Shown here piece after piece: positions 1 to 29,338 of a stretch of DNA of 39,284 nt. This DNA is from a virus. The translations under genes were made by a program, and so were the position numbers. Each line of letters opens with the position of its first letter. Positions within the stretch are counted from its first letter, which is position 1. Below the pieces are notes generated by a model, which saw nothing but the letters and a program-made list of their open reading frames with translations, was not told the origin of the DNA and searched no databases. Where the stretch lies: IMG/VR virus record IMGVR_UViG_3300045988_101290, positions 1-39,284 of that record. The stretch is one strand, 5' to 3'.

Positions 1-85
1 AATTCAGACATGGTTTATTGGACGTAAAGGAGTGATGAAAAAATGTTAGCAAATGGCGCAACACTGGCTTACAGAGAAAAAAAAG
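1..85. repeat. terminal overlap identical to 39200..39284 (circular assembly or terminal redundancy; unit 39199 bp)
   Basis: Direct reading: the same 85 bases occur at both ends. They join the end of ORF 38870..39226 to the start of ORF 43..471 without a break. Confidence 0.95.
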
Positions 86-471
86 ATGGTGCAGGATCGG
101 ATGCCACAGAATATACAGACCTTCCTGGACTGAAAGAAATTCCGAGTATTGGAATCAAAAAAGAAAAGGCAGATAACACATGCTTAACAGATCCGCACAA
201 AAAGTACGAAAGCGGAATCGGCGATCTGCCGGAAATGACATATAAGTTCAAATATGACAACACAAAAGCAGATAGTCCATATAGAGTGATGAGAAAAGCA
301 GCGGCAGCAAATACATTGCTGCAGTTTAAGGAAACTCTCAAAGACGGAAGCGTGACAAAATATGATGCAACCGTGGGTGTGACAAGAACAGGCGGCGGTA
401 TAAATGGTGTTATTGAATTCGAACTGGAAATGACAGTAGAGAGTGATCTGGATTACGAAGATCCATCATAA
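43..471 (+). CDS. major tail protein (siphovirus type)
   Basis: 142 aa with AAGGAG RBS. Lies between the neck/tail-completion genes and the G/GT chaperones plus tape measure. Beta-rich with an acidic C-terminus. Confidence 0.6.
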   Translation: MLANGATLAYREKKDGAGSDATEYTDLPGLKEIPSIGIKKEKADNTCLTDPHKKYESGIGDLPEMTYKFKYDNTKADSPYRVMRKAAAANTLLQFKETLKDGSVTKYDATVGVTRTGGGINGVIEFELEMTVESDLDYEDPS

Positions 472-489
472 GAAAAGGAGAATTGAAAT

Positions 490-939
490 ATGGGATTAGG
501 TGGAATTGACGAAGAAGTTGGAAAAGAAGAGATGGAACAGGATAATATTACAAATATTGCCGACAAAAAGCCAAAAAGAAGACCGTTCCATTACTGGGAA
601 GTAAGAGATACAACATATAAGCTGAAGCTCACTACAGCCGCAATTGAACGGCTGGAAAACAAATACCGTACCAATCTTGTAAACATGGTTGGAAACGACG
701 GAATACCGCCGTTATCAGTAATGCTTACGATCACACAGCAGGCAATGGTGACATGGCATCACGGTGTTACGTATCAGGGTGTCAAGAAATTATATGATGC
801 ATGGACAGAAGACGGCGGAAACCAGATGGACTTCTTCACAAAAATCATCATGCCGACCATGGCTGTGTCCGGTTTTTTTACAGAGAAACAGGCAGAGTCG
901 ATGATGGAAAGCCTGCAGGAGATGGACGAGATTGTATAA
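490..939 (+). CDS. tail assembly chaperone (gpG-like)
   Basis: 149 aa with AAGGAG RBS, directly upstream of the tape measure gene. Its 3' part overlaps an ORF in the -1 frame. Confidence 0.75.
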   Translation: MGLGGIDEEVGKEEMEQDNITNIADKKPKRRPFHYWEVRDTTYKLKLTTAAIERLENKYRTNLVNMVGNDGIPPLSVMLTITQQAMVTWHHGVTYQGVKKLYDAWTEDGGNQMDFFTKIIMPTMAVSGFFTEKQAESMMESLQEMDEIV

Positions 940-1292
940 GCTATATAGATGCATTATATGAATGCGCTGCAGAATGTGAGATTCCGGAAGATGTATTCTG
1001 GAATTCTTCTCCTGCGGAAATCACAGAGATGATCAGAAGGTATCAGAAAAAAGAACGAAGATTGTTTAAAGAAAAGGTACGGAGTATATTCCTGCTGGCT
1101 GAAGTAGTCACGAGATATATGACGAGGGATGAAAAAGCCGATGCTCCGCATCCGTGGGAATATTATCCCGATCTATTCAAAGAAGACCAAAAGATCTATG
1201 AAAAAGAAAAAGAAAGGGAAGAATTAGAAGAATACAAGGAAGCCAGAAGAGCATACGCAGCAGAATTCAACAGACGACGGCAGCAGGAGTAA
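490..1292 (+). CDS. tail assembly chaperone G-T fusion made by programmed -1 frameshift at 873..879
   Basis: ORF 801..1292 is in the -1 frame relative to 490..939 and has no RBS of its own. A T7 run provides the slip site. This is the conserved G/GT arrangement of long-tailed phages. Confidence 0.65.
873..879 (+). promoter_or_regulatory. slippery heptamer T TTT TTT for -1 ribosomal frameshift
   Basis: Zero frame reads GGT TTT TTT ACA (G F F T). The -1 frame reads TTT TTT TAC AGA... and continues as YRETGRVDDG... to the stop at 1292. Confidence 0.65.
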
Positions 1293-1335
1293 TCCTGCTG
1301 TTATTTGATTAAAAAAGGAAGGAGGTGGATACGGA

Positions 1336-4300
1336 ATGGATAATGGTGTATTAGAAAAATTAAAAGTAATCATTGAAGGTAATGCGAATCCATATAAGCA
1401 GACCATTGATGAAGCAAAAGCCAAGGCAAAGGAAATGACGGATTCCGTGAATAAAGATATTGCCAGGATTAAGAATCCGATCAAGAAAATGATGGAATCG
1501 AGCCCGGAGCTTCAGAATATGAAAAATCTGATATCCAACAGTCTTAAGGACGGATTGAATGGAAATATTGCCTCTGGAATTGGCAAAGGGATATACGGAA
1601 AAGTGAATGAAGCACAGACAAAGATCCGTGATGCATTGAAAGGATACCAGTTAAATTCGGGAATTAAGGAAAAAACTGATGATTACTTGCAGGTAGAAGA
1701 CGATCTGAAGCGTGCGGAAAAGGCGGTAGATAATCTAAAGGCAAAACAGAGAGATCTGGGAGCTGACGGAGTAAGTAAATTGAGCGATGCATGGCTCCAA
1801 AATGCTGAAGCAATTGAAAAAGCGGAGCGAAGAGTACAAGGCTATAAAAATAAAATGTCACGAATGGAATATGAAGGCCAAGATCTTCAATTCAAAGGTG
1901 GGAAAAGTGCGGCTGGAACAGTAGCATCAAAAGCTTTTTCTGGAATGAAATCCGTACTCGGAACTGTAACCGGCGGGATAAAGAAAACCGGTGGAGCTTA
2001 TGGCGCGTTAATCCAGAAGTTCGCCACAGGAATCCCTCATCTGAATAAGACGAAGAATTCCATGAAAGGCCTCGGGAACACCGGAAGAGGACTCGGGGGA
2101 ATATTCCGATCACTGGCAACTACGGCCAGATTCATGTTCGCAAGCTTCTTAATATCCGGAGCTTTTAATGGCGCAAAGGAAGGAATGCAGAACCTGGCGA
2201 AGTACAGCGGCACGACAAACAACAGTCTGTCGATGCTGATGTCGAGCTTAACACAGCTGAAGAACAGCCTGGCAACAGCATTTGCACCGATACTGAATGT
2301 TGCTGCGCCGATCCTGAATGCACTGATCCAGAAAGTATCACAGGCAGTTACAGCTGTAGGAATGTTGTTCGCATCATTGACGGGGCAGAAGAGCTTCACG
2401 AAGGCATCGAAGGTACAACAGAACTATGCGGCCAGTCTGGACAAAAATACAAGTAGCGCAAAGAAAGCAACTGCAGCGAATAAAACACTGCAGCGAACAT
2501 TACTTGGTTTTGACCAGATTAATCGAATGGACTCAAAGTCGGATAACTCAGACAACTCGCCAGACAGCGGAAGCGTCGGAGGATTATCGCCGAGTGACAT
2601 GTTCGAAGAGGCATCCATTCCAAACAAAATAAAAGAGTTTGCCGACAAGCTGAAAGAAGCCTGGAAATCAGGAGATTTTACAGAAATTGGAAGGATAGTA
2701 GGCGAAAAGCTCAATCAGGCACTGGAAAGTATTCCATGGGATAAGATTCGAAAAACCTCAAGTAAAATTGCAAAAGTGATTGCCACATTCCTAAACGGCT
2801 TCATCGCAGCGGTAGACTGGACTCTTGTAGGAAGTACGATCGGAAACGGCTTAAATACAGCGATAGATTTTGCCTATACATTCGTAACGACATTTGATTG
2901 GAAGAAATTCGGCAAAGCCATTGGAGATCTGATCAATGGTGCTGTAAAGACAATCGAGTGGGCGAAAGCTGGAAAAGCATTATCGGAAGGTATTAAAGGA
3001 CTTCTGGATCTTGCTTTGCAGGCAGTAGCCACAACAGATTGGAAACAGATAGGCGTTAAGATTGCCACATTTTTGAATAATATCGACTGGCGCGGAATCA
3101 TTACAAAGACACTCACGTTGCTGGTGGAAGTTCCGAAGGCCATCTTTGATCTTTTGGCCGGATTCATAGAAGAAACGGACTGGGGAAAGCTTGTTAAAGA
3201 TATTGCCGGAGGAATCAAAGACTTTTTGGTCGGATACGACTGGAAAGGATTATTCAAAAGCGCTGGAGAATTGATAGGTGCCGCTATAAAGGCATTATTT
3301 GATATCGGAGAAGAACTGGCTGAATGCGGGAAAAATATTGTAGCTGGATTTGAAAATGGAATTCTGGACGGACTGAAAAATATCGGAAAATGGATAGTTG
3401 ATAACATCTTCACACCTTTTATCGACGGATTCAAAGAGGCGTTCGGTATTCACAGCCCATCTACAGTCATGGCAGAGCAAGGCGGTTATATCATATTCGG
3501 ACTGCTGAAAGGATTGAAAGATAATCTCGACAGTGTTATTGAATGGTGCAAGAACTTGCCGGATAAAGTGAAAAATGCGCTCGGAAATGCAAAAGAATGG
3601 CTCGTAGAAAAAGGAAAGAATGCGATTGAAGGAATCAAGAACGGATATGAAGCTGTAAAAGATAGCGTATTCTTAAGTAATGTCCGGAAAATGAAAGATG
3701 AAGCGTTCTCTGCTATTGGAGACATATCAGGAAAAGTAAAATCAAGAGGATCAGAATTGATCGCCGGAGTAAAACAGGGCTATGAAAACAGCAAACAAAG
3801 CGGATTGCTTTCGAAAGTGGCCACACTGAAAGAAAATGTATATTCTTCAATCGGTGATGTAAAAACAAAAGTTCATAGTCGCGGAGTTGAAATTGTTTCA
3901 GGAATCAAACAGGGCTATGAAAATAATAAGAGTCAGATCAGAAGCGCGGTATCCGGAATACCAAGCCTGATATCATCTGGAATTGGTAATCTGTGGAATG
4001 TAGGAAAAAATGCAATATCATCATTTGCGAGAGGCTTCAGCTCCGTGCATATTCCAATGCCTCATATTGGATGGAACTGGAATAACTTCAATCTGGGATC
4101 ATTTAGATTTAGCGTTCCGAGCTTTAATCTGCGGTGGTATGCGAACGGTGGCTTCCCAGCAACGGGAGAAATGTTCGTTGCCCGCGAGTCGGGACCTGAG
4201 ATGGTAGGACGAATGGGAAAGAAGAGCGCCGTAGCAAACAACGACCAGATCGTCGATGGTATCAAGGCGGGTGTATTTGAAGCTGTTATGGATGCATTTG

Positions 4301-4452
4301 AGGCAAGCGGTATCCTGGAAAGCGATTCATCGTCGAAACAGGCACCGGTTATAGAACTCACGATTAAAACCGATTCAGAAACATTGTATAAAGTGGTACG
4401 AAGAGGAAAAGAAAAATATAACGGTCGATACATGATCGTAGAAACCATATAG
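1336..4452 (+). CDS. tail tape measure protein
   Basis: 1038 aa with GGAGG RBS. Alpha-helical and Gly/Ala-rich, with periodic DW/W repeats and tandem ~40-aa repeats ([10 protein letters not shown] / [10 protein letters not shown]). Follows the G/GT chaperones. Confidence 0.9.
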
Positions 4453-4464
4453 GAGGCGGAGCTA

Positions 4465-4824
4465 ATGGATGAAATCATAAGAGTAGGAGGAAAAGTATTC
4501 AAAGCTCCGTCTAAATTTAAATGGAAAAAAGGCGACGTAAGCGGATCCGATGCTGGAAGAGATGACGGCATAACGATGCATAAGAATAAAAAAGGCGAAA
4601 AAAGGACTCTTTCATTAGGGTGGACACAGCTGAAAAAGACGGAGATAACAGCAGTTTTACAGGCGTTCGCGCCAGAATATGTAGATGTAACATACTGGGA
4701 TCCACTGATTGGAACGGACGTAACAAAAACATTTTACACGGGTGACATGGAAGCTGAAGTAAAATGGTGGGCGAAAGGAAGAGAACGATACTCTTCAGTT
4801 AGTTTTGATGTCATAGAAAGGTGA
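4465..4824 (+). CDS. small distal tail component (Dit-like position)
   Basis: 119 aa with GGAGG RBS, located between the tape measure and the large tail/Tal gene. Assigned by position only. Confidence 0.4.
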   Translation: MDEIIRVGGKVFKAPSKFKWKKGDVSGSDAGRDDGITMHKNKKGEKRTLSLGWTQLKKTEITAVLQAFAPEYVDVTYWDPLIGTDVTKTFYTGDMEAEVKWWAKGRERYSSVSFDVIER

Positions 4825-4830
4825 TCATAC

Positions 4831-7800
4831 ATGAGAAAATTGTCAAATGCATTCAAAGAACAACAGAATAATGGAGTGGCAAAGTACCTGAAATACATAG
4901 ACATCACCTTGACAGATGGAACGGAGCTGCATCTTACTAATGATGATCTGTGGAATAACGGATTCAAACTGGAAGATGCAGTATCTTCCGGAACGGAATT
5001 CGAAATTGGTTCAGTAATAGTAAACCAGTGCACAATCAACATCAACAACATTGAAAACGAATTTTCAGGCTATGCATTCGAAGGGGCGGAAGTTACATGT
5101 TATGTAGGACTTCGGATATCGCCGTCAGGACTGGAAGAAACGAAGACTATTCCATGGAAAGACATAGATGGAACATCGATACTCGATGTAAATGGAACAG
5201 AAATATTGTTAGAATACGATGACGCTTACATAGAAAAGATCCGAATGTGCACGATGACAGTTGTAGATGCACCGTATCAAAATGACTCTATAATCAACCT
5301 GACGTGCCAGGATGATATGAGAAAATTTGACAAAAACTATAGCTGGAGCAGATTACAGTACCCAGCCACAAGAGCACAGATCATAAGAGATGCATGCGAT
5401 GTATGCGGAGTACAACTGCATACACAGATGTTCGACAACGATGACTATATCATATCTGAGCGGCCGGATGACGAGGGGCTTACATTCCGTCAAGTGTTGG
5501 CTTGGACGGCCCAAATCGGCTGTCAGTGGCTCAGATGCAATGAATACGGCGAGTTATGTGTTGGCTGGTACAACGAGAAAACTGAGGCGGAAGAAATATC
5601 ACAAACCAACGGATACACCATCAATCTTGAAAGCGTAGTGATAACCGGAATAAAGGTTACAGAGTACTTAGAAGCGTCTACGGAAGAAGATAAAGCCGGA
5701 ACCTATATGTATGGAAATGATGGATATGTCTTAGGAATAACCGGCAATAAATTAATACCAAAAGGCGCCGGCGATACAGTAGCTACTATGATTGGCCAAA
5801 AGTGCGTAGGCCTTACATTCCGTCCGTTCCAAGCAAACAGATACACGGATATTGCATATGAAGCGGGCGATCCTGTACTTGTGAGAGATAAAGACGGAAA
5901 ACTGCAAAGAAGTTACCTGACACAGGTGACAACCCAGCCTGGGCGTCTGCAGCAGATAGAATGCAATGCTAAAAGCGCAGAAAGAAACAGCAGCCAACGA
6001 TACAGCGCATCTACACAGGCCATAATAGCCGCAAGAAAAGCCGCAAAGAAGCAAGTTGAACATTATGATCAAAAAGTAGAACAAATTACAAAACTCATCG
6101 GCCAGGGATTCGGCATGTACATTACAGGGGTGAAACAGGACGATGGAAGCACCATCTACTACATGCATGACAAACCAAACCTGAAAGAATCGGGATATAC
6201 TTGCTACTGGACAACCAATGGAATTATCGCATCTCTGGACGGTGGGACTACATGGGCGATTGACCGGAACGGAAATGCTCTGTTCAATACCATTACAGCC
6301 AGAGGAATCAATGCGAACTGGATTAATACTGGAGAATTTAAGGTTACAGATAAAAACGGAAATGAAGTCTTCTACGTAAACTGCGACACGGGTATTGTAA
6401 GGATAAACGCACAAACAATTGCCATAACAGGACAATCGGTTGCGGACATAGCCAAAAAACAATTACAGAATTTTGTCGATGAGGTCTACAACATTGATAT
6501 TGAAAAGCTAAAAGAACAGATCAGCAATAAAATCGAAACGTGGACACAGGAAGACGATCCATCACTGGCATGGGGTAAAATCACGGAGATAGCATGGAGA
6601 GATGTAGACGGGCATCCAATCCTGGATGTGGACGGTAAAGAGATTATCGTAAAGTGTGAAGAAACCAAAGCGGAGCATGAAGGAGATCTTTGGTATAATC
6701 CGGTCACAAAAGAAAAATGGATATACCAATCGGGAAATTGGGTACCGGAGGACATTCCTGACAAAATTTTCAATGAAATAGACGGCAAATCTTCGATTTA
6801 TATCAATACACCGGTACCACCATATAACGAAGGGGACGTATATTTTACCGGATCCACGATACTTGTGTGCAAAACAGCGCGATCTGCAGGAGTATATAAT
6901 GCGGATGACTGGGGCAAAAAAGATGGATATACCGATGACAGTACGGTAAACGATTTCATAAAGAATACATACACTCCAAAGATTAACGATCTGCAAAGCC
7001 AGATAGATGGCAAACTTGAAAATTATTTTAAGGACTATGAACCAACGATGGACAATCTGCCAGCCAGTGAGTGGACAACGGAAGAGGATCGGCAAAAACA
7101 CAATGCAGACACGTTCTACTGGCTTTCTAAAAAAGCGACATACATATTCTGCAAAGTGGATGGAAAATGGCAATGGCTATTAGATAAAGATCCGGATATA
7201 CAGAAAGCGATGGAAGCAGCTGCAGCTGCACAAGATACTGCAGATGGGAAACGGACAACGTTTACCGAAACTCCAAAGCCACCATATGAGAAAGGAGATC
7301 TTTGGGCGCAGGGACCAGACGGAGATATGATGCGCTGTATTAAAGCGAGAGAGAGCGGAAATTATGCGGAATCAGATTGGGAAAAAGCCTCAAAATATAC
7401 AGATCTGACAGAAAAAGACTGCGAACTTATCGTTGACAAAAAGGCGAATGAGATAAGAATGAAGGCTGAAAAAATCATGTGGGAGTCTGACAACAGCAGC
7501 ATGTCTGAAGACGGAACATTGACTTGCATGAATGCCGTAATTAAGGGAGAAATAGAATCCCACAAAGAAATAGATGGCACAGAATTCTCATCTAAATTAG
7601 GCGAAGCGACATATTATTCATATGGATATGAAACAACAGCGGGCGCGTTTTTGGTGGAGAACAAATATAATGATAATGAAAAGGGAATTATCGTAATTTA
7701 TCCAGCTCCGAGAGAAAATATCTCTGCGGGAGCCGATGAATCGGTAAGCGAGATCTATACAAACAGAAATCTACAAATCGTAGCAAGAAAAGGGGAATCT

Positions 7801-8367
7801 GATTACTGGGGAGGCTTGGAAGTATTTGAGGGACACATATCTCTCATCGCTGGTTATAGAAATTCGTCTATGAATCCTATAGAAGTATGGAGTGATGGAA
7901 ACAACGAATATGGACAATTAAGAGGAACATGGAAACTGCCATCACATTTTACGGGGACATTAAGCGACACAACGACATCTGCCGCAAATGTATATATCGG
8001 ACCGACAGGAGATTCAAAACTTAGAAAAGTATCGTCGTCCAGCAAAAGATACAAACATGACATTACGGATATAGACAAAGAACTGAACCCAGATAGTTTA
8101 TACAACCTTCCGGTGAAATCTTATACATACAACACGGATTACATATCTGAAGAAGATACAAATTACAGAAAACGTATGATCGGCTTCATCGCTGAAGATG
8201 TAGATAAAATATATCCTAAAGCTTGCCAATACGATGCGGACGGGAAACCGGAAATGTGGAACAGCCAAATCATGATCCCGGCCATGATGAAACTAATCCA
8301 GGAACAAAACGAAAGAATACAGAAACTCGAAGAAAAAATGGCAGATCTCGAAGATGGAGGAAAATAA
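4831..8367 (+). CDS. tail-associated/tail fibre protein with C-terminal intramolecular chaperone (peptidase S74-like) domain
   Basis: 1178 aa. The N-terminus resembles the phage minor structural/tail endopeptidase N-region. It carries internal duplicated motifs (TPVPPYNEGDVYF.. / TPKPPYEKGDLWA..). The C-terminal ~111 aa (8032..8364), SSSSKRYKHDI...IGFIAEDV...MIPAMMKLIQEQNERIQKLE, is typical of auto-cleaving tail-spike chaperone domains. Confidence 0.8.
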   Translation: MRKLSNAFKEQQNNGVAKYLKYIDITLTDGTELHLTNDDLWNNGFKLEDAVSSGTEFEIGSVIVNQCTININNIENEFSGYAFEGAEVTCYVGLRISPSGLEETKTIPWKDIDGTSILDVNGTEILLEYDDAYIEKIRMCTMTVVDAPYQNDSIINLTCQDDMRKFDKNYSWSRLQYPATRAQIIRDACDVCGVQLHTQMFDNDDYIISERPDDEGLTFRQVLAWTAQIGCQWLRCNEYGELCVGWYNEKTEAEEISQTNGYTINLESVVITGIKVTEYLEASTEEDKAGTYMYGNDGYVLGITGNKLIPKGAGDTVATMIGQKCVGLTFRPFQANRYTDIAYEAGDPVLVRDKDGKLQRSYLTQVTTQPGRLQQIECNAKSAERNSSQRYSASTQAIIAARKAAKKQVEHYDQKVEQITKLIGQGFGMYITGVKQDDGSTIYYMHDKPNLKESGYTCYWTTNGIIASLDGGTTWAIDRNGNALFNTITARGINANWINTGEFKVTDKNGNEVFYVNCDTGIVRINAQTIAITGQSVADIAKKQLQNFVDEVYNIDIEKLKEQISNKIETWTQEDDPSLAWGKITEIAWRDVDGHPILDVDGKEIIVKCEETKAEHEGDLWYNPVTKEKWIYQSGNWVPEDIPDKIFNEIDGKSSIYINTPVPPYNEGDVYFTGSTILVCKTARSAGVYNADDWGKKDGYTDDSTVNDFIKNTYTPKINDLQSQIDGKLENYFKDYEPTMDNLPASEWTTEEDRQKHNADTFYWLSKKATYIFCKVDGKWQWLLDKDPDIQKAMEAAAAAQDTADGKRTTFTETPKPPYEKGDLWAQGPDGDMMRCIKARESGNYAESDWEKASKYTDLTEKDCELIVDKKANEIRMKAEKIMWESDNSSMSEDGTLTCMNAVIKGEIESHKEIDGTEFSSKLGEATYYSYGYETTAGAFLVENKYNDNEKGIIVIYPAPRENISAGADESVSEIYTNRNLQIVARKGESDYWGGLEVFEGHISLIAGYRNSSMNPIEVWSDGNNEYGQLRGTWKLPSHFTGTLSDTTTSAANVYIGPTGDSKLRKVSSSSKRYKHDITDIDKELNPDSLYNLPVKSYTYNTDYISEEDTNYRKRMIGFIAEDVDKIYPKACQYDADGKPEMWNSQIMIPAMMKLIQEQNERIQKLEEKMADLEDGGK

Positions 8368-8368
8368 T

Positions 8369-9118
8369 ATGAGTGATGAAAACATTATTGATGTTGATCA
8401 GAATGAAACAGATACCTGTGAAGAAATTACTGATACGGACACGATATCCGGAGAAGACAAAAGCGAAAACATATCTACAAACGAAGCAGCAGGTACAACG
8501 GAGGATATCGATGCTGATTACAGCATTGATGAAGAGCCGGGAGAATCCAGCGAAAATACCTCTTGTTCGGAAGCAAATGAGGCCACAACCGTAAGCGGAG
8601 CAACGGCAAGCCAAGTTGCAGAAACCGCCGGAAGTAAAAGATGGAATGAGTATACAAGCAGCACAGATCTTGACGATACTGACGAACTTATGATACTGGA
8701 TACGTCTGCGAAAGCCAACAAAAGGACATTACTTTCGAAGCTGGCAGATTATGTATTAGGTAAACTTGCAGACAAAGTGTTTGCGAAATTAGAGACGCAG
8801 AATAAGACAGTTATCGGTGCGCTTAATGAATTAAATAGCAAGCAGTCGAAGACCATCTCGGTATCAAATGTGACCGACATACAAACATTAGTAAACAGTG
8901 CTATGGGAGGCACGAACATTCTGTTTCACTTAGCTGGTGCTGGGTATACCGGGAATGATCTGCCTAAAGATACAAAATATGGATATGGATCCGGAATAAT
9001 TTTTTACCGAAATGCTGGATCGTGTAAAATAGTATTAATTCCGGAAGGATCAAAGCCAGTCTGGAAAATGTCTGATTGGACAAAATGGAGAGATTTCGCA
9101 AATAATATTGTGGATTAA
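8369..9118 (+). CDS. receptor-binding / tail fibre protein: constant N-part (to 8842) plus exchangeable 92-aa tip
   Basis: GGAGGA RBS 7 nt upstream of the ATG at 8369. Contains the fibre-like motif TVIGALNELNSK. The tip shares motifs with the minus-strand cassettes at 11034..12188. Confidence 0.6.
   Translation: MSDENIIDVDQNETDTCEEITDTDTISGEDKSENISTNEAAGTTEDIDADYSIDEEPGESSENTSCSEANEATTVSGATASQVAETAGSKRWNEYTSSTDLDDTDELMILDTSAKANKRTLLSKLADYVLGKLADKVFAKLETQNKTVIGALNELNSKQSKTISVSNVTDIQTLVNSAMGGTNILFHLAGAGYTGNDLPKDTKYGYGSGIIFYRNAGSCKIVLIPEGSKPVWKMSDWTKWRDFANNIVD
8833..8842 (+). repeat. core AAATAGCAAG (AAT AGC AAG = N S K) in the expressed tail-fibre gene; candidate crossover site
   Basis: The same 10-mer occurs four times on the opposite strand (11349, 11632, 11897, 12180). 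TTAAATAGCAAG (12 nt) is shared with two of them. Confidence 0.6.
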
Positions 9119-9130
9119 TTTGTAGACGAT

Positions 9131-9150
9131 TCTTGGTCTTCCCATTTAAT
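9131..9150. repeat. left arm of a perfect 20-bp inverted repeat (TCTTGGTCTTCCCATTTAAT)
   Basis: Exact reverse complement of 10985..11004. Starts 12 nt after the stop of 8369..9118. Confidence 0.9.
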
Positions 9151-9194
9151 ACAGGAAGAAACATGAAAAAGGAGAAAAATATGGAGATTAGAGC

Positions 9195-9219
9195 AAGACC
9201 TTAGCAGGTCTTATTTTTA
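9195..9219 (+). terminator. rho-independent terminator between tail fibre gene and lysis cassette
   Basis: AAGACCT tagc AGGTCTT stem (7 bp) followed by a TATTTTTAT tract. Confidence 0.6.
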
Positions 9220-9246
9220 TACGATGAAAATACGGAAAGGACACAT

Positions 9247-9546
9247 ATGATCAAATTTTTATCAGAAAATTGGGCATTGCTTTCGTTCACAGTATCAGCT
9301 ATCGCATACATATATTATCAGGTGATAGCTATGCGAAAAGGAATACGTGCACTACTAAGAGCGGATCTGATACGGCTCTACAACAAGTATCATGACGATC
9401 ACGGATATTGCCCGTTGTACGTCAAACAGTCATTAGAAGATGAGTATAAGCAGTACCACACACTGAAAGGGAATGGTGTAGGTACGCAAATGTATAATGC
9501 GCTCATGGCATTACCGACAGAACCACAACATGAAAGAGAGGAATAA
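9247..9546 (+). CDS. N-terminally membrane-anchored protein, first gene of lysis cassette
   Basis: 99 aa with one N-terminal TM segment (WALLSFTVSAIAYIYYQVIAM), immediately upstream of the holin. Confidence 0.5.
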   Translation: MIKFLSENWALLSFTVSAIAYIYYQVIAMRKGIRALLRADLIRLYNKYHDDHGYCPLYVKQSLEDEYKQYHTLKGNGVGTQMYNALMALPTEPQHEREE

Positions 9547-9548
9547 TT

Positions 9549-9782
9549 ATGTTTAAAAATTGTGTATTTAAGGTATCGGTAGATACTAAAAAATGGATGA
9601 AGAAAGCAGGAATCAGAGCAACCAAAACTGTAGCACAGACTGCAGTAGCAACGATTGGAACAGCAACGGCACTTGGACAGGTGGATGCAAAGCTTGTAAT
9701 TTCAGCATCAGTGCTGGCCGGAATCCTGTCCTTGCTGACAAGTGTGGCTGGATTACCGGAATGTAACACAGAGGACGAATAA
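9549..9782 (+). CDS. holin
   Basis: 77 aa with the motif IRATKTVAQTAVATIGTA... and two hydrophobic segments. Directly precedes the endolysin. Confidence 0.65.
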   Translation: MFKNCVFKVSVDTKKWMKKAGIRATKTVAQTAVATIGTATALGQVDAKLVISASVLAGILSLLTSVAGLPECNTEDE

Positions 9783-9800
9783 TCGTCATCGTATTATTTA

Positions 9801-9816
9801 TGTGCGACGTCGCACA
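9801..9816. repeat. 16-bp perfect palindrome TGTGCGACGTCGCACA (parS-like site S1)
   Basis: Intergenic, ending at the endolysin RBS. Member of a 5-copy family (20271, 22805, 28144, 31004). Confidence 0.7.
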
Positions 9817-9830
9817 GGAAGGAGATCAAA

Positions 9831-10934
9831 ATGGCATTAAACGGAATAGATATAAGTAATCATCAGAAAGGACTCAATCTGAAGGATATAACTTGCGACT
9901 TTGTAATCTGTAAGGCTACGGAGGGAACAACCTTCGTAGATAAATATTGTGACGGTTTCATGCAACAGGCTATGAAACTTGGCAAAAAAGTAGGCGTGTA
10001 TCATTTTGCGAGCGGCAAAACAACCGGAAAAGCTGAAGCGGATTTCTTTTTGAAGAATGTACAGGGATATATTGGAAGAGCAATCTTGATCTTGGATTGG
10101 GAAGGAGACGCAGTAAAGAAAGGCGTAGGATATGCAAAAGAATTCCTGGATCGCGTGCTGGAGAAGACGGGAATCAAACCTATGTTATACAGCTACAACA
10201 ATTGCATCAATGCTTATGACTGGTCAGCAGTCAAAAACGCAGACTATGGCCTTTGGAACGCTGGCTACTACAATGGATATACAGAAATGGGATACACTCC
10301 GAAAGCACCTCTGAAAGGAGGACTTGGAGCCTGGGGAAGCTGTGCGATGTATCAGTATACTTCAAGTGGGAAATTAGCAGGTTGGTCTGGCCATCTCGAT
10401 TTAGATGTATTCTATGGAGACGCAGCTGCATGGGACAAATACGCTGGCGGTTCGGCCGGAGCCGGAACATCTATTGCAAAACCAGCACCCGCACCAATTC
10501 CTGCAGTAAATCCAACGAATCAGAGCTTGAAAAATGCACAGATCCATATTAATAACTTTACGGGCGCTGGAATTCCTGAAGATGGAAAGAACGGTCCGAA
10601 GACACGCAAAGGATTAATTATGGCATTACAGACTGCTTGCAATATGGATTACAATTCTGGTTTGACCGTAGACGGAAAAATCGGAGCGAAGACTAATGCT
10701 GCGCGTGACCTCCATTATGTAAAACGTGGAGAGAAGCAGTATCTTGTTACATTCGTTGAAATCGGACTTACAGCACTTGGATATTATAGCGGAGCAGTAG
10801 AAGCGCCAGGAATTTTCGGCGGTGGGTTGGAAACAGCAGTAGATAAATTCCAGAATGACACCAGTCTCAACAACGACAAAGTAGCCGGAAGGAATGTTAT
10901 GGATATGATCCTTAGAAAAATGGGATGTATTTAA
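9831..10934 (+). CDS. endolysin: GH25 muramidase domain plus C-terminal peptidoglycan-binding repeats
   Basis: N-terminus NGIDISNHQ...DFVICKATEG...VGVYHFA is typical of GH25. The C-terminus carries PG_binding_1-like repeats (DGKNGPKTRKGL, VDGKIGAKTNAA). Confidence 0.9.
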   Translation: MALNGIDISNHQKGLNLKDITCDFVICKATEGTTFVDKYCDGFMQQAMKLGKKVGVYHFASGKTTGKAEADFFLKNVQGYIGRAILILDWEGDAVKKGVGYAKEFLDRVLEKTGIKPMLYSYNNCINAYDWSAVKNADYGLWNAGYYNGYTEMGYTPKAPLKGGLGAWGSCAMYQYTSSGKLAGWSGHLDLDVFYGDAAAWDKYAGGSAGAGTSIAKPAPAPIPAVNPTNQSLKNAQIHINNFTGAGIPEDGKNGPKTRKGLIMALQTACNMDYNSGLTVDGKIGAKTNAARDLHYVKRGEKQYLVTFVEIGLTALGYYSGAVEAPGIFGGGLETAVDKFQNDTSLNNDKVAGRNVMDMILRKMGCI

Positions 10935-10948
10935 ATTGAGATTAACGT

Positions 10949-10984
10949 GAAGTAACAGGGGGAAATTCTCCGCCCTGTTACTTC
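10949..10984. terminator. strong 12-bp-stem hairpin, bidirectional terminator candidate
   Basis: GAAGTAACAGGG...CCCTGTTACTTC lies between the convergent endolysin and the minus-strand block. It has no clear T-run. Confidence 0.55.
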
Positions 10985-11004
10985 ATTAAATGGGAAGACC
11001 AAGA
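10985..11004. repeat. right arm of the perfect 20-bp inverted repeat
   Basis: ATTAAATGGGAAGACCAAGA is the reverse complement of 9131..9150. It lies 29 nt beyond the stop of cassette B1 in that cassette's coding direction. Confidence 0.9.
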
Positions 11005-11033
11005 TTTATTCAATAGCTTCAAATTACTAAAGA

Positions 11034-11357
11034 TTAAACAATCGCTTTCACAGATAAACCTTTGTCTAAAAATACAATTCGGTAGGTGCCCCAACCGCCA
11101 GCGAATCTTGGAATAGTTATAGTGCCGTTTTTACCTCCAGTAGCACCTATTGCATTTGACGATACATACGCTTGTGCTGTCGAAACATCTGTGTCGCTAA
11201 ACGATATACAAATCGGTTGAGCAGCCTCCAATTGACTACTAATTAGAAGAAGTGCAACTACAGTTCTACTTCTTGTAATCCCAGAGAATTGCAGCTTTCG
11301 CTCAATGTTACTTTGATCAACATAAGCCGAATTTATTTCAAGTGCTTTCTTGCTATT
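11034..11357 (-). other. silent tail-fibre tip cassette B1 (NSK + 104 codons + stop)
   Basis: Part of track ORF 11034..11411, whose start is TTG with no RBS. It begins at the core AAT AGC AAG and is beta-rich. Confidence 0.45.
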
Positions 11358-11642
11358 TTGTTTAAGAAATTTTTGAAAGAATTCCACGTTCGATTGAATA
11401 TCGAATATCAAGTTTCATACCATATCTATATAATACTATCAGTCCGTATGTACCATTAATATATCTATATCCAACGGCAAGATATCTTGATTCGGCTATA
11501 AAATTTTTAAAGAACGTTCCTTCTTTCGGAAATCTGTTCTTAGTCACTGCATCCTTTACACATGCATCAAGTCCACCAAGCGCTTCATATTCCGGGTCTC
11601 GATAATGTATTTCCGAAGTATCAATCTGAGCCTTGCTATTTA
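11349..11642. repeat. direct repeat copy 1 (294 bp; core-A1-core)
   Basis: Manual alignment to 11897..12190 gives 20 substitutions and no indels, with a period of 548 bp. Confidence 0.9.
11362..11640 (-). other. silent tail-fibre tip cassette A1
   Basis: Part of track ORF 11362..11667 (GTG start, no RBS). Begins at TTA AAT AGC AAG. Contains EALGG and NRFPKEGTFF motifs that resemble the expressed tip. Confidence 0.45.
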
Positions 11643-11905
11643 ACCTCACAAGTAAAATCACTTGCACTGATTATTGACGCATAACTCCAATTGCTTAGTT
11701 TGACCTCAAATCTACCGTTTGCATATTTGATACTACCTTCTCCCACGCTTGAAATCTGAGTTGACAAAGAAGCGAACGCATAAAAATATGCTGTGTTATA
11801 ATCTCCAAAAGCCATGAAAGAAAAATGACTTGTGTCTTTTGGGATAACACATATAGTGTCTTTATCGTTTGTACTTACCTTTGCGGTAAAAAATGCCTTG
11901 CTATT
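11636..11905 (-). other. silent tail-fibre tip cassette B2
   Basis: Part of track ORF 11636..11959 (TTG start, no RBS). Contains VIPKDTSHFSFMAFG, compared with LPKDTKYGYGSG in the expressed tip. Its stop TAG lies inside the next core. Confidence 0.45.
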
Positions 11906-12190
11906 TTGTTTAAGAAATTTTTGAAAAAATTCCACTTTCGATTGAATATCGACTATCAAGTTTCAGACCATATCTATATAATACTATTAGTCCGTATGTA
12001 CCATTAACATATCTATATCCAACGGCAAGATATCTCGAACCGGCTATAAAACTTTTAAAGAACGTTCCTTCTTTCGGAAATCTGTTCTTAGTCACTGCAT
12101 CCTTTACACATTCATCAACTCCACCAAGAGCATGATATTCCGAGTCTTGATAATATATTACTGAAGTATCAATCTGAGCCTTGCTATTTA
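11897..12190. repeat. direct repeat copy 2 (294 bp; core-A2-core)
   Basis: See copy 1. The two copies share a ~58-nt block of complete identity (TGTGTAAAGGATGCAGTGACTAAGAACAG...). Confidence 0.9.
11910..12188 (-). other. silent tail-fibre tip cassette A2 (paralogue of A1)
   Basis: The conserved part of track ORF 11910..12350. The remaining 5' part of that ORF is antisense to the miaB fragment and its promoter. Confidence 0.45.
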
Positions 12191-12220
12191 AAACACAATA
12201 GCTGCTGATCAGAATAAATC

Positions 12221-12249
12221 TTGAAAAACTTGTAATACTAACGTATAAT
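12221..12249 (+). promoter_or_regulatory. sigma-A-type promoter TTGAAA-17-TATAAT driving the miaB fragment
   Basis: -35 at 12221..12226, a 17-nt spacer, and -10 at 12244..12249, which is 37 nt upstream of the ATG at 12287. Confidence 0.6.
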
Positions 12250-12286
12250 ATTGTAACGCCATTAATGAGAGAAAGGAATTGCAATA

Positions 12287-12496
12287 ATGTATACAAACAA
12301 CGAAGAATTCGAAAAGATGTTAGAAACAATTGATATAGATAAAGAACCACCAGCTGATGATACTGAAAGACAGTATTATTTTATCAAAAAAGCAAGGAAA
12401 TATGTAAAAGAGGAATCAGAGAAACTGGGCCGCCCATTATTCTTTGCTACCGTAACATTCGGTTGTCAGATGAACCCGGTATCCGTGAATTATTAA
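12287..12496 (+). pseudogene. miaB: 5' fragment of tRNA methylthiotransferase miaB (first ~63 codons), predicted to be completed by the host gene after integration
   Basis: ...ERQYYFIKKARKYV...GRPLFFATVTFGCQMN matches the N-terminal extension and first cluster cysteine (GCQMN) of clostridial-type MiaB. The frame then diverges (PVSVNY) and stops. Confidence 0.6.
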
Positions 12497-12552: not shown

Positions 12553-14244
12553 CTATCTGTACAATAATGTGTGCGTTAATCCGTTTTTAAAAACGATCTC
12601 TGCAATACGCTTATCCAGAACAACGATGTGATCAACGATAGAATTGACAAATGCTTTCATAGATTCTTCATCCAATGCAGCAAGTCTGGAATAGTCTATA
12701 TAGTCACCACTGTTGATCTTGTGCGAGATAAGGAATTGAGATGCGGATTTAAGGAAGGCTGCCTGATCAACATTCTCGGAAATAGAAGAGGACTCTAAAC
12801 CCTTGATGCTATTTTCCAGCTTTATTCGGTCAACCTCCAGCTTTGACTTCATCTCAAGAAATTCTTTTTCATCCATTCCATCGTCGTCAAAGAGATATGC
12901 TTTCTTTAGCCGCTCCAGAGCACGATCCGTCCGCTGGAGCTTCTCTTTCAATTCCGTCGTTTTACTCTCATCAGTAGCACCACTGGATATAGGCTTACCG
13001 GACAGCAGCTCTGATCCGGAACGTCCAAACAGTAGATCAAGAGTATCCTGAAGACTGGAAGCAGAGATACCGACCACATCGGAAAAAGAAACGTGGGAGA
13101 GAATGACCCGCTCCAGGGATTCACAGTCTTTGATAAACCTTCGGCTCTTTGATGCATCGACCATTGCGGCTATATAATTAAGCACAAATGGACCAATCCT
13201 GACGTCGCTGACATTCAGGTTATCACAGTTCTTTTTCTGATATTTCCCGGTGCAGGCGTAAGAGGACGGCCGGAAGCCATCACCTTTGCGGCTGTCTTTG
13301 CCTTTTACCTGATATCCGGAGCCACACTTTCCGCAGATCATTAACCCGGCAAACACATTACATCTTTTCCGGATTGGATGGAAGACAGAAGTGTTTCGGT
13401 TTTGACTGTTTGCATCCATCCGTCGGTTAACTTCGTCCCATATATTGGGATCAATGAGCGGCGGGAAGACACCTTTGATGTAGATGACCTCATCATCGGA
13501 TTTCTTCTTTCCTCTGGCGCTCTCGCGGTAATTATACCGGTAATCGCCTTTGTTGATCGGATTCCGTAAAAAGTCCGCGACTGTCTTCGAAGTCCATTCC
13601 CCACCTCGTTTGGTAGGAATATTATGAGAATTGTTATAATCGCAGATAGTAACGGATGATCCGCCGTCCAGATACATCTGATACATAGCTTTGGCATAAG
13701 GAGCTTCTTTCTTTGAATGGACAGGACACTTCTTCTCGGCATCCCAATCCCACCCGTAAGGAACTCTTGCACCATTCCATTGTTTGTTCTGTGCACGTCC
13801 GATCATTACGTCTTTAACACGCTCAGACGTCAATTTACGCTCCAATTCGGCGAACACTAGTATAATCTTAAGGATAGCCTCACCGATGGCGCTAGAGGTG
13901 TCAAATTGTTCATTCAGTGATATGAACGTAACATTGTTGTATTTGAAATCATCGTACATGAGAGAGAAGTCCACAAGGTTTCTTGTAATCCGGTCTATCT
14001 TATATACGATCACGTGAGAGACCTGGCCAGATTTTACTTTCTCCATCATTCGCTCGAATGCAGGACGTTTCGTATTCTTACCGGACCGGCCTGCATCCTC
14101 AAATACCTCAATTCGCTTTTTATTAATGTGCAGCACGTGTTCGCAGTAGGCTCGCAACTCTTTCTTTTGAAATGGGAGAGAGTCCTTGTCGACCTGATAA
14201 CCAGTACTTACGCGGACATACAATGCTACTATTTTCTCGTCCAT
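12553..14244 (-). CDS. large serine recombinase (integrase)
   Basis: N-terminal resolvase domain (VALYVRVSTGYQ...SL..Q), recombinase domain, Cys-rich zinc ribbon and C-terminal coiled coil. Start taken at MDEKIV (ATG 14244), 8 nt after AAAGGA. Confidence 0.92.
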   Translation of the reverse strand: MDEKIVALYVRVSTGYQVDKDSLPFQKKELRAYCEHVLHINKKRIEVFEDAGRSGKNTKRPAFERMMEKVKSGQVSHVIVYKIDRITRNLVDFSLMYDDFKYNNVTFISLNEQFDTSSAIGEAILKIILVFAELERKLTSERVKDVMIGRAQNKQWNGARVPYGWDWDAEKKCPVHSKKEAPYAKAMYQMYLDGGSSVTICDYNNSHNIPTKRGGEWTSKTVADFLRNPINKGDYRYNYRESARGKKKSDDEVIYIKGVFPPLIDPNIWDEVNRRMDANSQNRNTSVFHPIRKRCNVFAGLMICGKCGSGYQVKGKDSRKGDGFRPSSYACTGKYQKKNCDNLNVSDVRIGPFVLNYIAAMVDASKSRRFIKDCESLERVILSHVSFSDVVGISASSLQDTLDLLFGRSGSELLSGKPISSGATDESKTTELKEKLQRTDRALERLKKAYLFDDDGMDEKEFLEMKSKLEVDRIKLENSIKGLESSSISENVDQAAFLKSASQFLISHKINSGDYIDYSRLAALDEESMKAFVNSIVDHIVVLDKRIAEIVFKNGLTHTLLYR

Positions 14245-14406
14245 AAATATCATCCTTTCCGTAAAAATGAGTATAAAAAATACACCTATACGGTGCTGAA
14301 AATTTATGGTACAATATCATTGCCGATGAATTATTGTACGTGCTCAGCACTGTATAGTATTTATCAAAAGGTCTCGGTGTTGGTAGCACCGGGGCTTTTT
14401 ATATTA

Positions 14407-23850: not shown

Positions 23851-24239
23851 TGTTCCCGAAACCAACCAGGAAGAAAAAAAGGAAACACCACCCAGCTCCG
23901 ATCGTAGACACAGTAAAAGGTGAATGCTTCCTGTGCCGACTGGAAGGCATCCGCCGGCAGCAGTACACGGAAGAACATCATGTGTTTTATGGTGGCGGAC
24001 TGAGAAAAGTCAGTGAGGAGAACGGCTTTAAAGTCTATCTGTGTAGAGATCACCACAAAGACGGACCAAGAGCCGCACATAATTGCAGAGAGACGCGTGA
24101 ACTATTATGCCGGATATTTCAGAGAAAGTACGAAGAAACCCATACGAGAGAAGAATTCCGAGCATTAGGTATAAAGAATTATTTGGAGGATGAGCATGAT
24201 GACATTACAAGAGATATTTCGAGTGCAGGAAAGCTATAA
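23850..24239 (+). CDS. NinG/HNH-like zinc-binding nuclease candidate
   Basis: MFPKP...CFLC...EEHHVFYGG...LCRDHH pattern. The TAATG start overlaps the previous stop. Confidence 0.4.
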   Translation: MFPKPTRKKKRKHHPAPIVDTVKGECFLCRLEGIRRQQYTEEHHVFYGGGLRKVSEENGFKVYLCRDHHKDGPRAAHNCRETRELLCRIFQRKYEETHTREEFRALGIKNYLEDEHDDITRDISSAGKL

Positions 24240-25407: not shown

Positions 25408-25810
25408 AATATGCAATATAGAACGGGCAGTAACTGAGAAAACATATAAGGCAGGGAGCTGCTACATAAAACTGAGCGCAGTAGATGATTATGTCGGGCA
25501 ACTGCAGAAACCTGGGGCAATAGATCCGAGATATGCAGTATTAGAACCAAAAGAAGAAATCAACGCAGATTACATGTATATAGCTATTTGCAGGAGTTTT
25601 CCGGAATTCTTAAGAAAATACAGAACAACTATAAATCTACAATTCAACACATTGAAGCGCTTCGAAATACGTTGGCACGACGATAGGGAAATACAAAAAT
25701 ATATTGTAAATGCACTCAAGACAGTAGAGAAAGAAATAAATCTGGTTGAAGACCAGATAGAACATGAGAAAGAAGTAAAAAGATGGTATCTGGAAAAAAT
25801 GATGATGTAG
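25373..25810 (+). CDS. hsdS: half-size specificity subunit (single target-recognition domain, HsdS-like)
   Basis: 145 aa with one TRD-like region plus a C-terminal helical conserved region (EIQKYIVNALKTVEKEINLVEDQIEHEKEVKRWYLEKMM). Overlaps the hsdM end by 35 nt. Confidence 0.55.
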   Translation: MNLQCRQIHITEICNIERAVTEKTYKAGSCYIKLSAVDDYVGQLQKPGAIDPRYAVLEPKEEINADYMYIAICRSFPEFLRKYRTTINLQFNTLKRFEIRWHDDREIQKYIVNALKTVEKEINLVEDQIEHEKEVKRWYLEKMMM

Positions 25811-28300: not shown

Positions 28301-29338
28301 ATGTATAATACCAATATTAAAGCGGAAGTTATTAATAATGTCATTTTCCGGATGTCTCAGTATGTAGACAGAACAACTCTGGACATCCTGCAGAAGATAC
28401 TGGAAGAACAACTGGTTGCGGTAAACATGGAAGAGATTACCACACTCCCAGCAGAGTTAAAAGTATCTTACGAAGAGCAGAACCGGTACTACATCGGTCT
28501 TATGATGATCAAAAAGAAAAATCTCCGGCAGGTCACAAAGAACCAGTACAGAGATGCTGCTACGAGATTAGCAACAGCGCTGAATAAACCATTGAATAAA
28601 ATTGATGAGATTGACATCGATTATTATTTGCACTGGTATTCGGAACGATCTGGAAAGAAAGGCAATAAGAATACAGCAGCAACCGTAAATAATGAGAGAC
28701 GGTACCTGTCTGCCTTCTTCACATGGATGCGGAAAGAACACTTTATAACTTTCAACCCAGTGGAGAATACGGAAGCACTGAAAGAAGTGAGAAAGCCGAT
28801 TGACTACTTCCGGCCAGCAGAGATGGAAGAGTTAAGGGAAGGCTGTGAATCCAAACGCGACCGTGCCATTATTGAAGTGTTCCGCAGTACCGGAGCAAGA
28901 ATCGGAGAGATTGCGCCACTGAACCGGGAAGACATTGACTGGAGTACAGGAGATATCATGATCCTGAGTGAAAAGAGCGAACGCTATAGAGTAATCTATC
29001 TGGATGAGGTGGCAAGGTTCCATCTAAAGAGATACCTCGACACCCGTACAGATGATAATCCGGCACTGTTCGTTGCTCAGAGGAAACCTTTTGCGAGACT
29101 TTCCGTCAATGGATTAAGGGACGTTATCAAGCGGATCGGAAAGAGAGAAGGTATGTCATGCAGGGTATATCCGCACAAGATGCGTAAAACGCTCGGCATG
29201 AATCTCAAGAACCGTGGAGCAGATATTGGTATTATACAAGAAATCATGGGACATGCAAGTCCGGAAGTAACAGCAAGATACTATGCAGAATCCACACCAG
29301 AAACCTTACGAAGCGTCAGAATCAGGACGTCGGCGTAA
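28301..29338 (+). CDS. tyrosine recombinase (second recombinase; candidate invertase/resolvase)
   Basis: Catalytic signature is present: STGARIGE (Arg), YPHKMRKT (His-x-x-Arg) and MGHASPEVTARYY (His...Tyr). AAGGAGGG RBS. Confidence 0.85.
   Translation: MYNTNIKAEVINNVIFRMSQYVDRTTLDILQKILEEQLVAVNMEEITTLPAELKVSYEEQNRYYIGLMMIKKKNLRQVTKNQYRDAATRLATALNKPLNKIDEIDIDYYLHWYSERSGKKGNKNTAATVNNERRYLSAFFTWMRKEHFITFNPVENTEALKEVRKPIDYFRPAEMEELREGCESKRDRAIIEVFRSTGARIGEIAPLNREDIDWSTGDIMILSEKSERYRVIYLDEVARFHLKRYLDTRTDDNPALFVAQRKPFARLSVNGLRDVIKRIGKREGMSCRVYPHKMRKTLGMNLKNRGADIGIIQEIMGHASPEVTARYYAESTPETLRSVRIRTSA

Follow-up and report, generated by a model that had tools for sequence, protein, structure and literature searches.

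Probable shufflon-type switching of receptor-binding tips on a small phage tail fibre, with a second class of sites around the lysis module

Introduction

Prophages of Bifidobacterium breve/longum and Eggerthella lenta carry the Rin shufflon, in which a tyrosine invertase acts at an 11-bp asymmetric site and a constant part of 168 amino acids (aa) is combined with tips of 95-100 aa (Mavrich et al., 2018, PMC6109161; PMC8778435). Here, we describe a locus in IMG/VR record IMGVR_UViG_3300045988_101290, the whole 39.3-kb length of which (39,284 nucleotides [nt]) was analysed and is called the window below. The window is the genome of a temperate siphovirus-type gut phage in its excised (attP) configuration, and the locus holds a small tail-fibre gene with one expressed tip and, beyond the lysis genes, four silent tip cassettes. 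We conclude that this locus is very probably a shufflon-type switch, by which multiple inversions would exchange the receptor-binding tip of this fibre. Two short sites recur throughout: s1, found at the tip junction of the fibre gene and in front of every silent cassette, and s2, an inverted repeat around the lysis module.

Of the systems described so far, the Rin shufflon comes closest in both logic and dimensions, and we regard the two as closely analogous rather than as demonstrated homologues. Both have an expressed receptor-binding protein (RBP) gene with a constant N-terminal part (N-part; 168 aa in Rin, 158 aa here) and several promoterless, variable C-terminal cassettes (95-100 vs 86-104 aa), and both carry a short asymmetric site (11 bp vs 10-12 bp), repeated in both orientations, within the gene and directly upstream of each cassette. 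Mutually dissimilar tips are a further common feature, as are isomers, between prophage and virion or between strains; here, relatives of the window phage form two isomer pairs (L111/L112 and L325/L338) with breakpoints exactly at the sites. An armless Xer-like tyrosine recombinase, the enzyme type of Rin, is embedded in the locus of many relatives, and the window has a candidate homologue of 36% identity, 16 kb away. The initial annotation of this stretch, made by a model from the sequence alone, had not recognised the architecture as a described system; the Rin reports (PMC6109161, PMC8778435) do provide a precedent.

The two systems nevertheless differ. The site is unrelated (rix, TTCCCTAACCC, in Rin; TTAAATAGCAAG here), and the fibre has no detectable similarity to the lactococcal 1358/TP901-1 RBPs (no PDB match). 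Rin hosts are Actinobacteria, whereas Firmicutes are the probable hosts here. The s2 class of sites, which lies around a lysis and/or recombinase segment, has no counterpart in Rin; the Rin invertase flanks its locus, whilst the window recombinase is not adjacent; and the present junction occurs on many unrelated N-part families, with arrays of at least 13 cassettes.

Two other groups of systems bear comparison. The Gin/Cin/Pin/Min inversions also change the C-terminal part of a tail fibre, altering host range, and Min of p15B likewise has several crossover sites and several segments. However, these systems rely on an adjacent serine invertase of ~190 aa, quasi-palindromic sites of ~26 bp and a Fis-dependent enhancer, none of which is present here: no small Hin/Gin-family invertase is encoded, and the site consists of 10-13 asymmetric bases rather than a ~26-bp dyad. 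The R64/IncI1 shufflon shares with our locus multiple inversion by a tyrosine recombinase, asymmetric and partly conserved sites, and a constant N-terminus with alternative C-termini on an adhesin that chooses the partner cell. Its target, in contrast, is the conjugative pilus adhesin pilV and not a phage fibre, its sfx site is unrelated, the Rci gene lies next to the cassettes it rearranges, and the Xer-like recombinases discussed below gave no Rci-specific match. To our knowledge, neither a second site class nor an embedded non-cassette module has been reported for R64. The literature that we searched contained no paper with the s1 12-mer or the s2 15-mer.

Results

One expressed tip and four silent cassettes behind a common site

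The fibre gene, its site and the silent cassettes are as follows.

8369..9118, plus strand: tail-fibre/receptor-binding gene (expressed), 249 aa; open reading frame (ORF) with 438 homologues; alternative ATG at 8354
8369-8842, plus strand: constant N-part of the fibre gene, 158 aa
8831..8842, plus strand: s1 site in the fibre gene, TTAAATAGCAAG, encoding L N S K
8843-9115, plus strand: tip0, the expressed tip, 91 aa
11034..11358, minus strand: silent cassette D, 104 aa (KALEINS...), s1 at 11349-11358; 100% identical to the expressed tip of P0121
11362..11643, minus strand: silent cassette A2, 89 aa (AQIDTSEIHY...), s1 at 11632-11643; A-type tips are expressed in P0159, P0160 and P0032
11636..11906, minus strand: silent cassette B2, 86 aa (AFFTAKV...), s1 at 11897-11906; expressed in P0143, P0146, P0147 and P0154
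11910..12191, minus strand: silent cassette A1, 89 aa (AQIDTSVIYY...), s1 at 12180-12191; protein 100% identical to the P0125-P0135 tips

The start at 8369 (MSDENII...) is consistent with most gene calls of the homologues, at 249 aa. As the initial annotation had noted, the core of s1, AAATAGCAAG, occurs exactly five times in the window, once in the fibre gene at 8833(+) and four times inverted at 11349(-), 11632(-), 11897(-) and 12180(-), against an expectation of 0.26 copies, and none of 100 shuffles attained five. The open frame at all five sites reads AAT AGC AAG (N S K), again as first described. Its account of the cassettes as startless stretches of 86-104 codons that end near the next core was likewise confirmed: they encode 104, 89, 86 and 89 aa, and each tip has its stop 0-3 nt ahead of the next core or of the terminal s2 motif. 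Cassettes A1 and D contain no methionine, A2 and B2 only internal ones, and the DNA upstream of each silent core is non-coding or has an in-frame stop. The segments that hold A1 (11897-12191) and A2 (11349-11643) form a direct duplication of 295 nt with 93% identity, so that the four cassettes encode only three tip types.

The TTG and GTG starts that ORF finders list for the four minus-strand frames would allow them to be independent small genes. We consider this scarcely credible, given that none has an ATG start or a Shine-Dalgarno sequence, that the upstream extensions look non-coding and differ between loci, and that the same sequences are found elsewhere as in-frame fibre C-termini joined exactly at the core.

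The fibre protein itself had no Pfam, PHROG, NCBIfam or PDB-fold match. Its AlphaFold2 model is disordered over residues 1-90, has beta strands and helices over residues 100-158 and a folded tip over residues 160-249 (predicted local distance difference test [pLDDT] ~80-87). A fold search with this model gave no PDB match (best E 0.36) and, in BFVD, only uncharacterised homologues; a model of the A-tip fusion was unusable (pLDDT 49). Among cultured phage records, the fibre family is absent save for one match of 27% coverage.

The same tips are joined to other N-parts in relatives

A protein search with the fibre yielded 438 relatives, and a second search was made with the concatenated silent cassettes. 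The initial annotation had suggested looking for the same N-part with swapped tips, and these were found: the N-part of the window (first 158 residues, 95-99% identity) carries more than 25 unrelated C-termini, among them an A-type tip (P0032), always joined after ...GALNELNSK. Conversely, tip0 occurs on several unrelated N-parts, and A-, B2- and D-type tips form in-frame C-termini on at least six N-part families, joined at ...LNSK and up to 100% identical. The DNA of A1 is 99.7% identical to that of the expressed tip of L111/L112. Some cassettes also change status from phage to phage: L009 and L014 express the AKILQQ cassette, which L001 holds in silent form, and L015 expresses AKSGIIY, a silent cassette of L009.

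In a set of 48 unique silent sites, drawn from 19 loci, conserved bases were limited to (T)(T/A)AAATAGCAAG(G), that is, 10-13 asymmetric bases; a single left flank is joined to up to five different tips, and a single tip start is found behind up to four different left flanks. Since the core is untranslated at silent sites, its conservation acts at the DNA level. One lineage (L336-type) has a variant core, AAATAGTAAG, at every site of its arrays, expressed or silent. The recurrence of the same s1 junction on many unrelated N-parts indicates that the cassettes also form a pool that is exchanged between phages, as read from these genome comparisons.

The tips themselves are dissimilar. Profile-profile comparison (hhalign) between alignments of the four tip families gave probabilities of <1%, and the motifs that the initial annotation had seen as shared among tips did not hold up. 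It had also proposed that cassettes unrelated to the expressed tip in structure or profile would speak against a switch. The tips are indeed without detectable homology by this comparison, but the cassettes demonstrably serve as tips, and the proposed test was therefore too strict.

Several individual loci deserve mention. Protein P0080, encoded on a 2.8-kb ENA contig, has the A1 tip up to ...YRYGLK followed directly by the full tip0 (QSKTVS...); the junction lies inside A1 at ctgaaacttgatag (window ~11935-11960), and a secondary event at a pseudo-site or an assembly chimera is possible. The expressed s1 of L001 (6465) reads TTAAACAGCAAG, with a synonymous T>C change in the core, and may be a locked variant; the single silent site of that locus is canonical. 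The AETPNIS... cassette of L013 is present twice (7747-8061 and 11008-10694; 315 nt, 100% identity), inverted and flanking the lysis module. Conservative inversion could not create this duplicate, which suggests exchange between two isomeric copies or assembly from a mixed population. Finally, the N72-type phages L282, L295, L299 and L301 (~10150-11500) have an N-part of 72 aa, then one to three silent cassettes on the same strand and a single s2; after another ~220 nt, a short ORF is preceded by one inverted s1, and the lysis genes lie outside the invertible span.

Isomers of related prophages differ by inversions at s1 and s2

Direct evidence for rearrangement came from L111 (ENA ERZ28597515) and L112 (Logan SRR24155023), the same prophage in different samples, with shared blocks 98-100% identical. 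Their layouts are given below, primes marking inverted elements.

L111: A1(expressed)-t0-s2-[lysis + tyrosine recombinase]-s2'-GEIS'-AQTL'-RRTP'-GFLG'-LFFG'
L112: A1-AQTL-RRTP-GFLG-GEIS-s2-[lysis + tyrosine recombinase]-s2'-t0'-LFFG'

At their boundaries, the blocks overlap by 11-25 nt, and these overlaps coincide exactly with s1 cores and s2; there are no breakpoints elsewhere. The rearrangements are reciprocal and conservative, with zero substitutions over ~12 kb. An exhaustive signed-permutation search connected the two layouts by four inversions, of which three use s1 and one uses s2, whilst s1 inversions alone could not convert L111 to L112 in the complete space of 1440 states. At s2, the flanks t0 and GEIS have switched sides between the two isomers, and the central segment has kept both its orientation and its s2-proximal bases (AT against GC), which places the crossover within GTCTTCCCATTTA. 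We regard s2 as a crossover site demonstrated in these relatives, as judged from their assemblies. L325 and L338 constitute a second isomer pair, and L336 and L363 have common cassettes on opposite sides and in opposite orientation. As repeats of 10-13 bp cannot mislead assemblers with k of at least 21, these arrangements represent real major isomers.

The idea of the initial annotation that recombination at the core fuses the constant N-part to alternative tips is thus supported by the swapped tips of relatives, by cassettes expressed elsewhere and by L111/L112. Tip switching by recombination at s1 is shown for these relatives and, by extension from them, would apply to the window phage.

Could the NELNSK linker instead be a mere module boundary used by homologous recombination, general or phage-encoded, with the inverted cassettes as debris? 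The junction is, after all, common to many unrelated N-parts and phages, and near-identical phages differ in their cassette repertoire. However, silent sites share only 10-13 bp without flanking homology, the core is conserved even where untranslated, ordered arrays of up to 13 cassettes each start exactly at it, and one lineage has its private core variant across whole arrays. The conservative exchanges in L111/L112, free of substitutions, and the recombinase gene physically embedded in the locus also argue against an explanation without dedicated recombination, which we judge highly improbable.

Sites of the s2 class bracket the lysis module

The DNA between the expressed tip and cassette D contains the following elements.

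9131..9150, plus strand: left arm of s2, TCTTGGTCTTCCCATTTAAT; 20-nt perfect inverted repeat with 10985-11004
9195..9212, plus strand: terminator-like hairpin 3' of the fibre gene
9247-9546, plus strand: ORF of unknown function, phrog_4105
9549-9782, plus strand: r1t-type holin
9831-10934, plus strand: GH25 + PG_binding_1 endolysin
10948..10985: 13-bp perfect hairpin 3' of the endolysin gene
10985..11004, minus strand: right arm of s2, inverted copy; 20-nt perfect inverted repeat with 9131-9150

The two arms bracket the lysis module; one follows immediately on the stop of the expressed tip, the other on that of cassette D. This inverted repeat had been overlooked in the initial annotation, which had pointed to the position of the whole lysis cassette within the invertible span as a peculiarity. 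The module does lie in that span; the problem that this poses is answered by the s2 sites that flank it. All related loci examined have exact copies of a 15-mer within s2, GTCTTCCCATTTAAT, always at the flanks of the central module, and the DNA on either side of it varies with the adjoining cassette and with the type of lysis module. The order fibre, (+) cassettes, s2, central module, s2', (-) cassettes was found in all 14 loci that show both s2 arms and the fibre gene. A scan of IMG/VR with the s2 15-mer was swamped by chance matches.

The reverse complement of s2, TTAAATGGGAAG, equals s1 except for the central three bases, AGC in s1 and GGG in s2. Heterology in the crossover region blocks exchange by tyrosine recombinases such as Cre, FLP and lambda Int, and the AGC/GGG difference would block exchange between s1 and s2 if it lies in that region. 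No hybrid s1/s2 site was present among the loci examined.

From these elements we propose the following mechanism. The constant N-part of 158 aa ends in s1, and the four promoterless, startless cassettes lie inverted beyond the lysis module, each behind an s1 of its own. Conservative recombination of the expressed s1 with any inverted s1 would fuse a new tip of 86-104 aa in frame, and each such inversion would also flip the central holin-endolysin segment. Inversion between the two s2 arms would flip that segment back, so that the choice of tip would be uncoupled from the orientation of the lysis genes, with the two site classes kept orthogonal by their different crossover sequences. No strong promoter was found ahead of the lysis genes; together with the terminator-like hairpin after the fibre gene, this suggests that lysis-gene orientation relative to late transcription may matter. 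The enzyme would most likely be an Xer-like tyrosine recombinase, either the homologue described next or the enzyme of a co-resident phage in trans.

A candidate recombinase, and points against an active switch in the window phage

Outside the locus, the window has one tyrosine recombinase gene that could serve the array.

28301..29338, plus strand: Xer-like (armless) tyrosine recombinase, candidate shufflon recombinase in trans; Phage_integrase and SAM-like domains, XerA/C/D-like

In L111/L112, the s2-bounded segment contains a gene for an Xer-like tyrosine recombinase of 333 aa, with which the window protein shares 36% identity over 318 aa (E 3e-65). Both lack an arm-binding domain, and among 50,697 phage records the family of the window recombinase is one of the closest relatives of the embedded enzyme. 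Embedded tyrosine recombinases are present in the L111/L112, L019/L022, L319/L320, L336 and L388 lineages. In IMG/VR, all homologues of the L111-type enzyme at 90% identity or above adjoin s1 arrays and s2. Members of a group at ~76% identity lack s2 and are flanked by (+) and (-) arrays with as many as 13 cassettes (L319, L320); with respect to the fibre gene, both orientations are found (L319 vs L019, L022 and L323). Where identity is 70-74% (L336 and others), the recombinase gene itself is directly bracketed by s2, as a perfect inverted repeat of 18 nt, and the embedded recombinase of L388, 41% identical to the L111 type, is found with the same junction 18-mer. We put the odds that the 28301-29338 protein is the shufflon enzyme of the window at roughly even, judging from these protein comparisons; the main alternative would be the recombinase of a co-resident phage acting in trans.

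A number of observations weigh against a working switch as we propose it. In 14/14 s2-bearing loci, the central segment points the same way as the fibre gene, and the flipped intermediate was never seen; in the s2-less lineage, both orientations occur. No isomer with the exact cassette set of the window on its N-part was found in the databases, and inversion in the window phage itself is extrapolated from its relatives. The window and L111 share 94% identity in the central segment, yet that of the window has no embedded recombinase gene, and the candidate enzyme, with its 36% identity to the embedded type, is encoded 16 kb from the locus. A closer homologue (60%), the nearest one from a cultured phage, belongs to phiCs5676-1 of C. 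scindens, in which neither s1 nor s2 occurs, and the N72-type phages have the same core with no related recombinase within 10 kb.

Several of these points would also fit a genuine array that is non-autonomous or frozen here: the embedded recombinase would have been lost, switching would happen only with an L111-type enzyme in trans or never, and the 28301-29338 protein would do something else. The near-identical segment without the gene, the distance in sequence to the embedded enzyme, the homologue in a phage without the sites, the absence of isomers among the recombinase-less loci with the 158-aa N-part and the core mutation at the expressed site of L001 all point that way. On the other side, the five s1 sites and both s2 arms of the window are perfect. 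The recombinase-less relatives L013, L015 and L018 have cassettes on both sides of the lysis module, an arrangement that needs past inversions, and the L388 enzyme serves the same junction at 41% identity, so that 36% does not exclude a shared specificity. We therefore consider a frozen or dependent array somewhat unlikely, and favour a switch that is served by an Xer-like recombinase.

Whether phiCs5676-1 (L110) is itself a shufflon carrier was considered and rejected, there being no s1/s2 sites and no convincing inverted repeats at its fibre genes. L110 does have a 16-nt inverted repeat of 88% identity (12801-12816 / 13912-13927) that joins a minor tail gene, at its 3' end (..PIIEKN..), with a minus-strand ORF of 104 aa (..SGIIETN..), and that could be an unrelated tail-gene inversion switch. 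Within the recombinase gene of the window there is a 16-nt perfect inverted repeat (28302-28317 / 29223-29238), with one arm at codons 1-6 and the other in the DIGIIQ region, close to the catalytic His. A self-switch at this repeat was rejected, as the repeat is absent from homologues of 68% identity and is probably due to chance, with which its occurrence in 39 kb is compatible.

The large serine recombinase is the phage integrase

Next to the cassettes lie the elements of phage integration.

12221-12249, plus strand: phage-borne promoter, near-consensus (11/12 positions match)
12221-12496, plus strand: replacement 5' end of a miaB-like radical-SAM gene (69-codon fragment), with promoter
12553-14253, minus strand: large serine recombinase, the phage integrase, 566 aa; Resolvase, Recombinase and Zn_ribbon_recom domains; phrog_95 integrase; attP adjacent

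Positions 12190-12475 of the window are 100% identical to the right end (attR side) of the integrated prophage L001. The two diverge right after ...GCQMN, where L001 runs on into an intact gene of 487 aa (UPF0004/Radical_SAM/TRAM). The attP crossover is therefore at ~12476-12479, directly after ...GCQMN, and the serine recombinase is the integrase, a role that had escaped the initial annotation. The insertion target is a miaB-like radical-SAM gene that adjoins mutS in the host. As the phage brings a promoter and 64 replacement codons, the host gene is still intact after integration, which is the case in prophages L001, L009 and L013; attP beside the integrase and a promoter with a 5' end that restores the host gene are the marks of a large-serine-integrase prophage that sits in a gene and supplies a replacement for its end.

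This recombinase might nevertheless be thought to catalyse the inversions, as it adjoins the cassettes in the window and its N-terminal resolvase domain also matches phrog_125 'DNA invertase'. We consider this very unlikely. The protein is of the 566-aa integrase type with attP alongside and its attP/attR junction mapped. In L001, L009 and L013, the cassettes abut the host gene at attR, where the integrase cannot adjoin them, and the L111/L112 isomers and many other lineages have a tyrosine recombinase in the locus instead. Furthermore, we know of no serine-recombinase att or crossover site that is of this 10-12 bp asymmetric type. With this gene assigned as the only serine recombinase of the window, the earlier statement that there is no Hin/Gin-type invertase stands.

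Other features of the window genome

The remainder of the genome is that of a temperate phage.

43-8367: tail tube, tape measure and 1178-aa tail protein
4831-8367: 1178-aa tail protein with a C-terminal Peptidase_S74 chaperone domain (residues 1070-1131)

Peptidase_S74 intramolecular chaperones are typical of self-cleaving tail spikes and fibres, and the domain makes it probable that the 1178-aa protein is a second, non-switchable host-binding protein of this phage. After position 14253 there follow lysogeny and replication genes, an N6-methylase, Tad3, the Xer-like tyrosine recombinase, and then terminase, portal and head genes. The Tad3 match (type I Thoeris inhibitor; Pfam PF25185, E 2.8e-32) is to a 231-aa protein at 26962-27657, a candidate anti-defence gene. 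The 24190-25810 region encodes an N6 DNA methylase of 405 aa and then a protein of 145 aa with a weak, single Methylase_S (HsdS target-recognition) domain. A link between the tyrosine recombinase and these nearby methylase/half-HsdS genes was rejected, as there are no inverted hsdS fragments or repeats nearby. A scan of GTDB genomes with the N-part for the host genus gave one spurious acidic-repeat match only; the lysis genes and the closest cultured phage relative suggest Firmicutes as the host phylum.

Discussion

Taken beyond the window, the data would fit a more general scheme, which we put forward tentatively as a possibility. A single Xer-like recombinase acting on two heterospecific site classes, alike in their flanking bases but with different crossover triplets, would exchange tips around a lysis and/or recombinase module whose orientation is restored every time, and the cassettes would form a communal, integron-like pool among unrelated gut Firmicutes phages that includes non-autonomous arrays, that of the window among them, driven in trans. 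If the s1/s2 inference holds, the natural system would resemble engineered FLEx and cassette exchange with heterospecific lox or FRT sites, where one recombinase serves two site classes that differ in the crossover region, and two independent inversions amount to cassette exchange around a segment whose orientation is preserved. FLEx is artificial, whereas the orthogonality proposed here is deduced from the AGC/GGG difference and the absence of hybrid junctions.

The fibre family is encoded on at least 428 IMG/VR contigs, with the DNA core in a subset only. Tyrosine-recombinase RBP shufflons are extended from two actinobacterial cases to a phage group that apparently infects Firmicutes and comes mostly from human gut metagenomes. 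In the literature searched, no description was found of a second class of sites by which an embedded essential module is insulated from inversions. Such a system would explain why these regions are assembled inconsistently from metagenomes, s1 and s2 are candidate orthogonal recombination sites, and the N-part, the 12-bp site and a tip of ~90 aa make up a compact natural scaffold for studying or retargeting the adsorption of gut phages in laboratory strains. Receptor-binding tips set host range, and the system would offer from 5 (window) to at least 13 (relatives) interchangeable tips, with a standardised junction that lets them pass between otherwise unrelated phages of the human gut.

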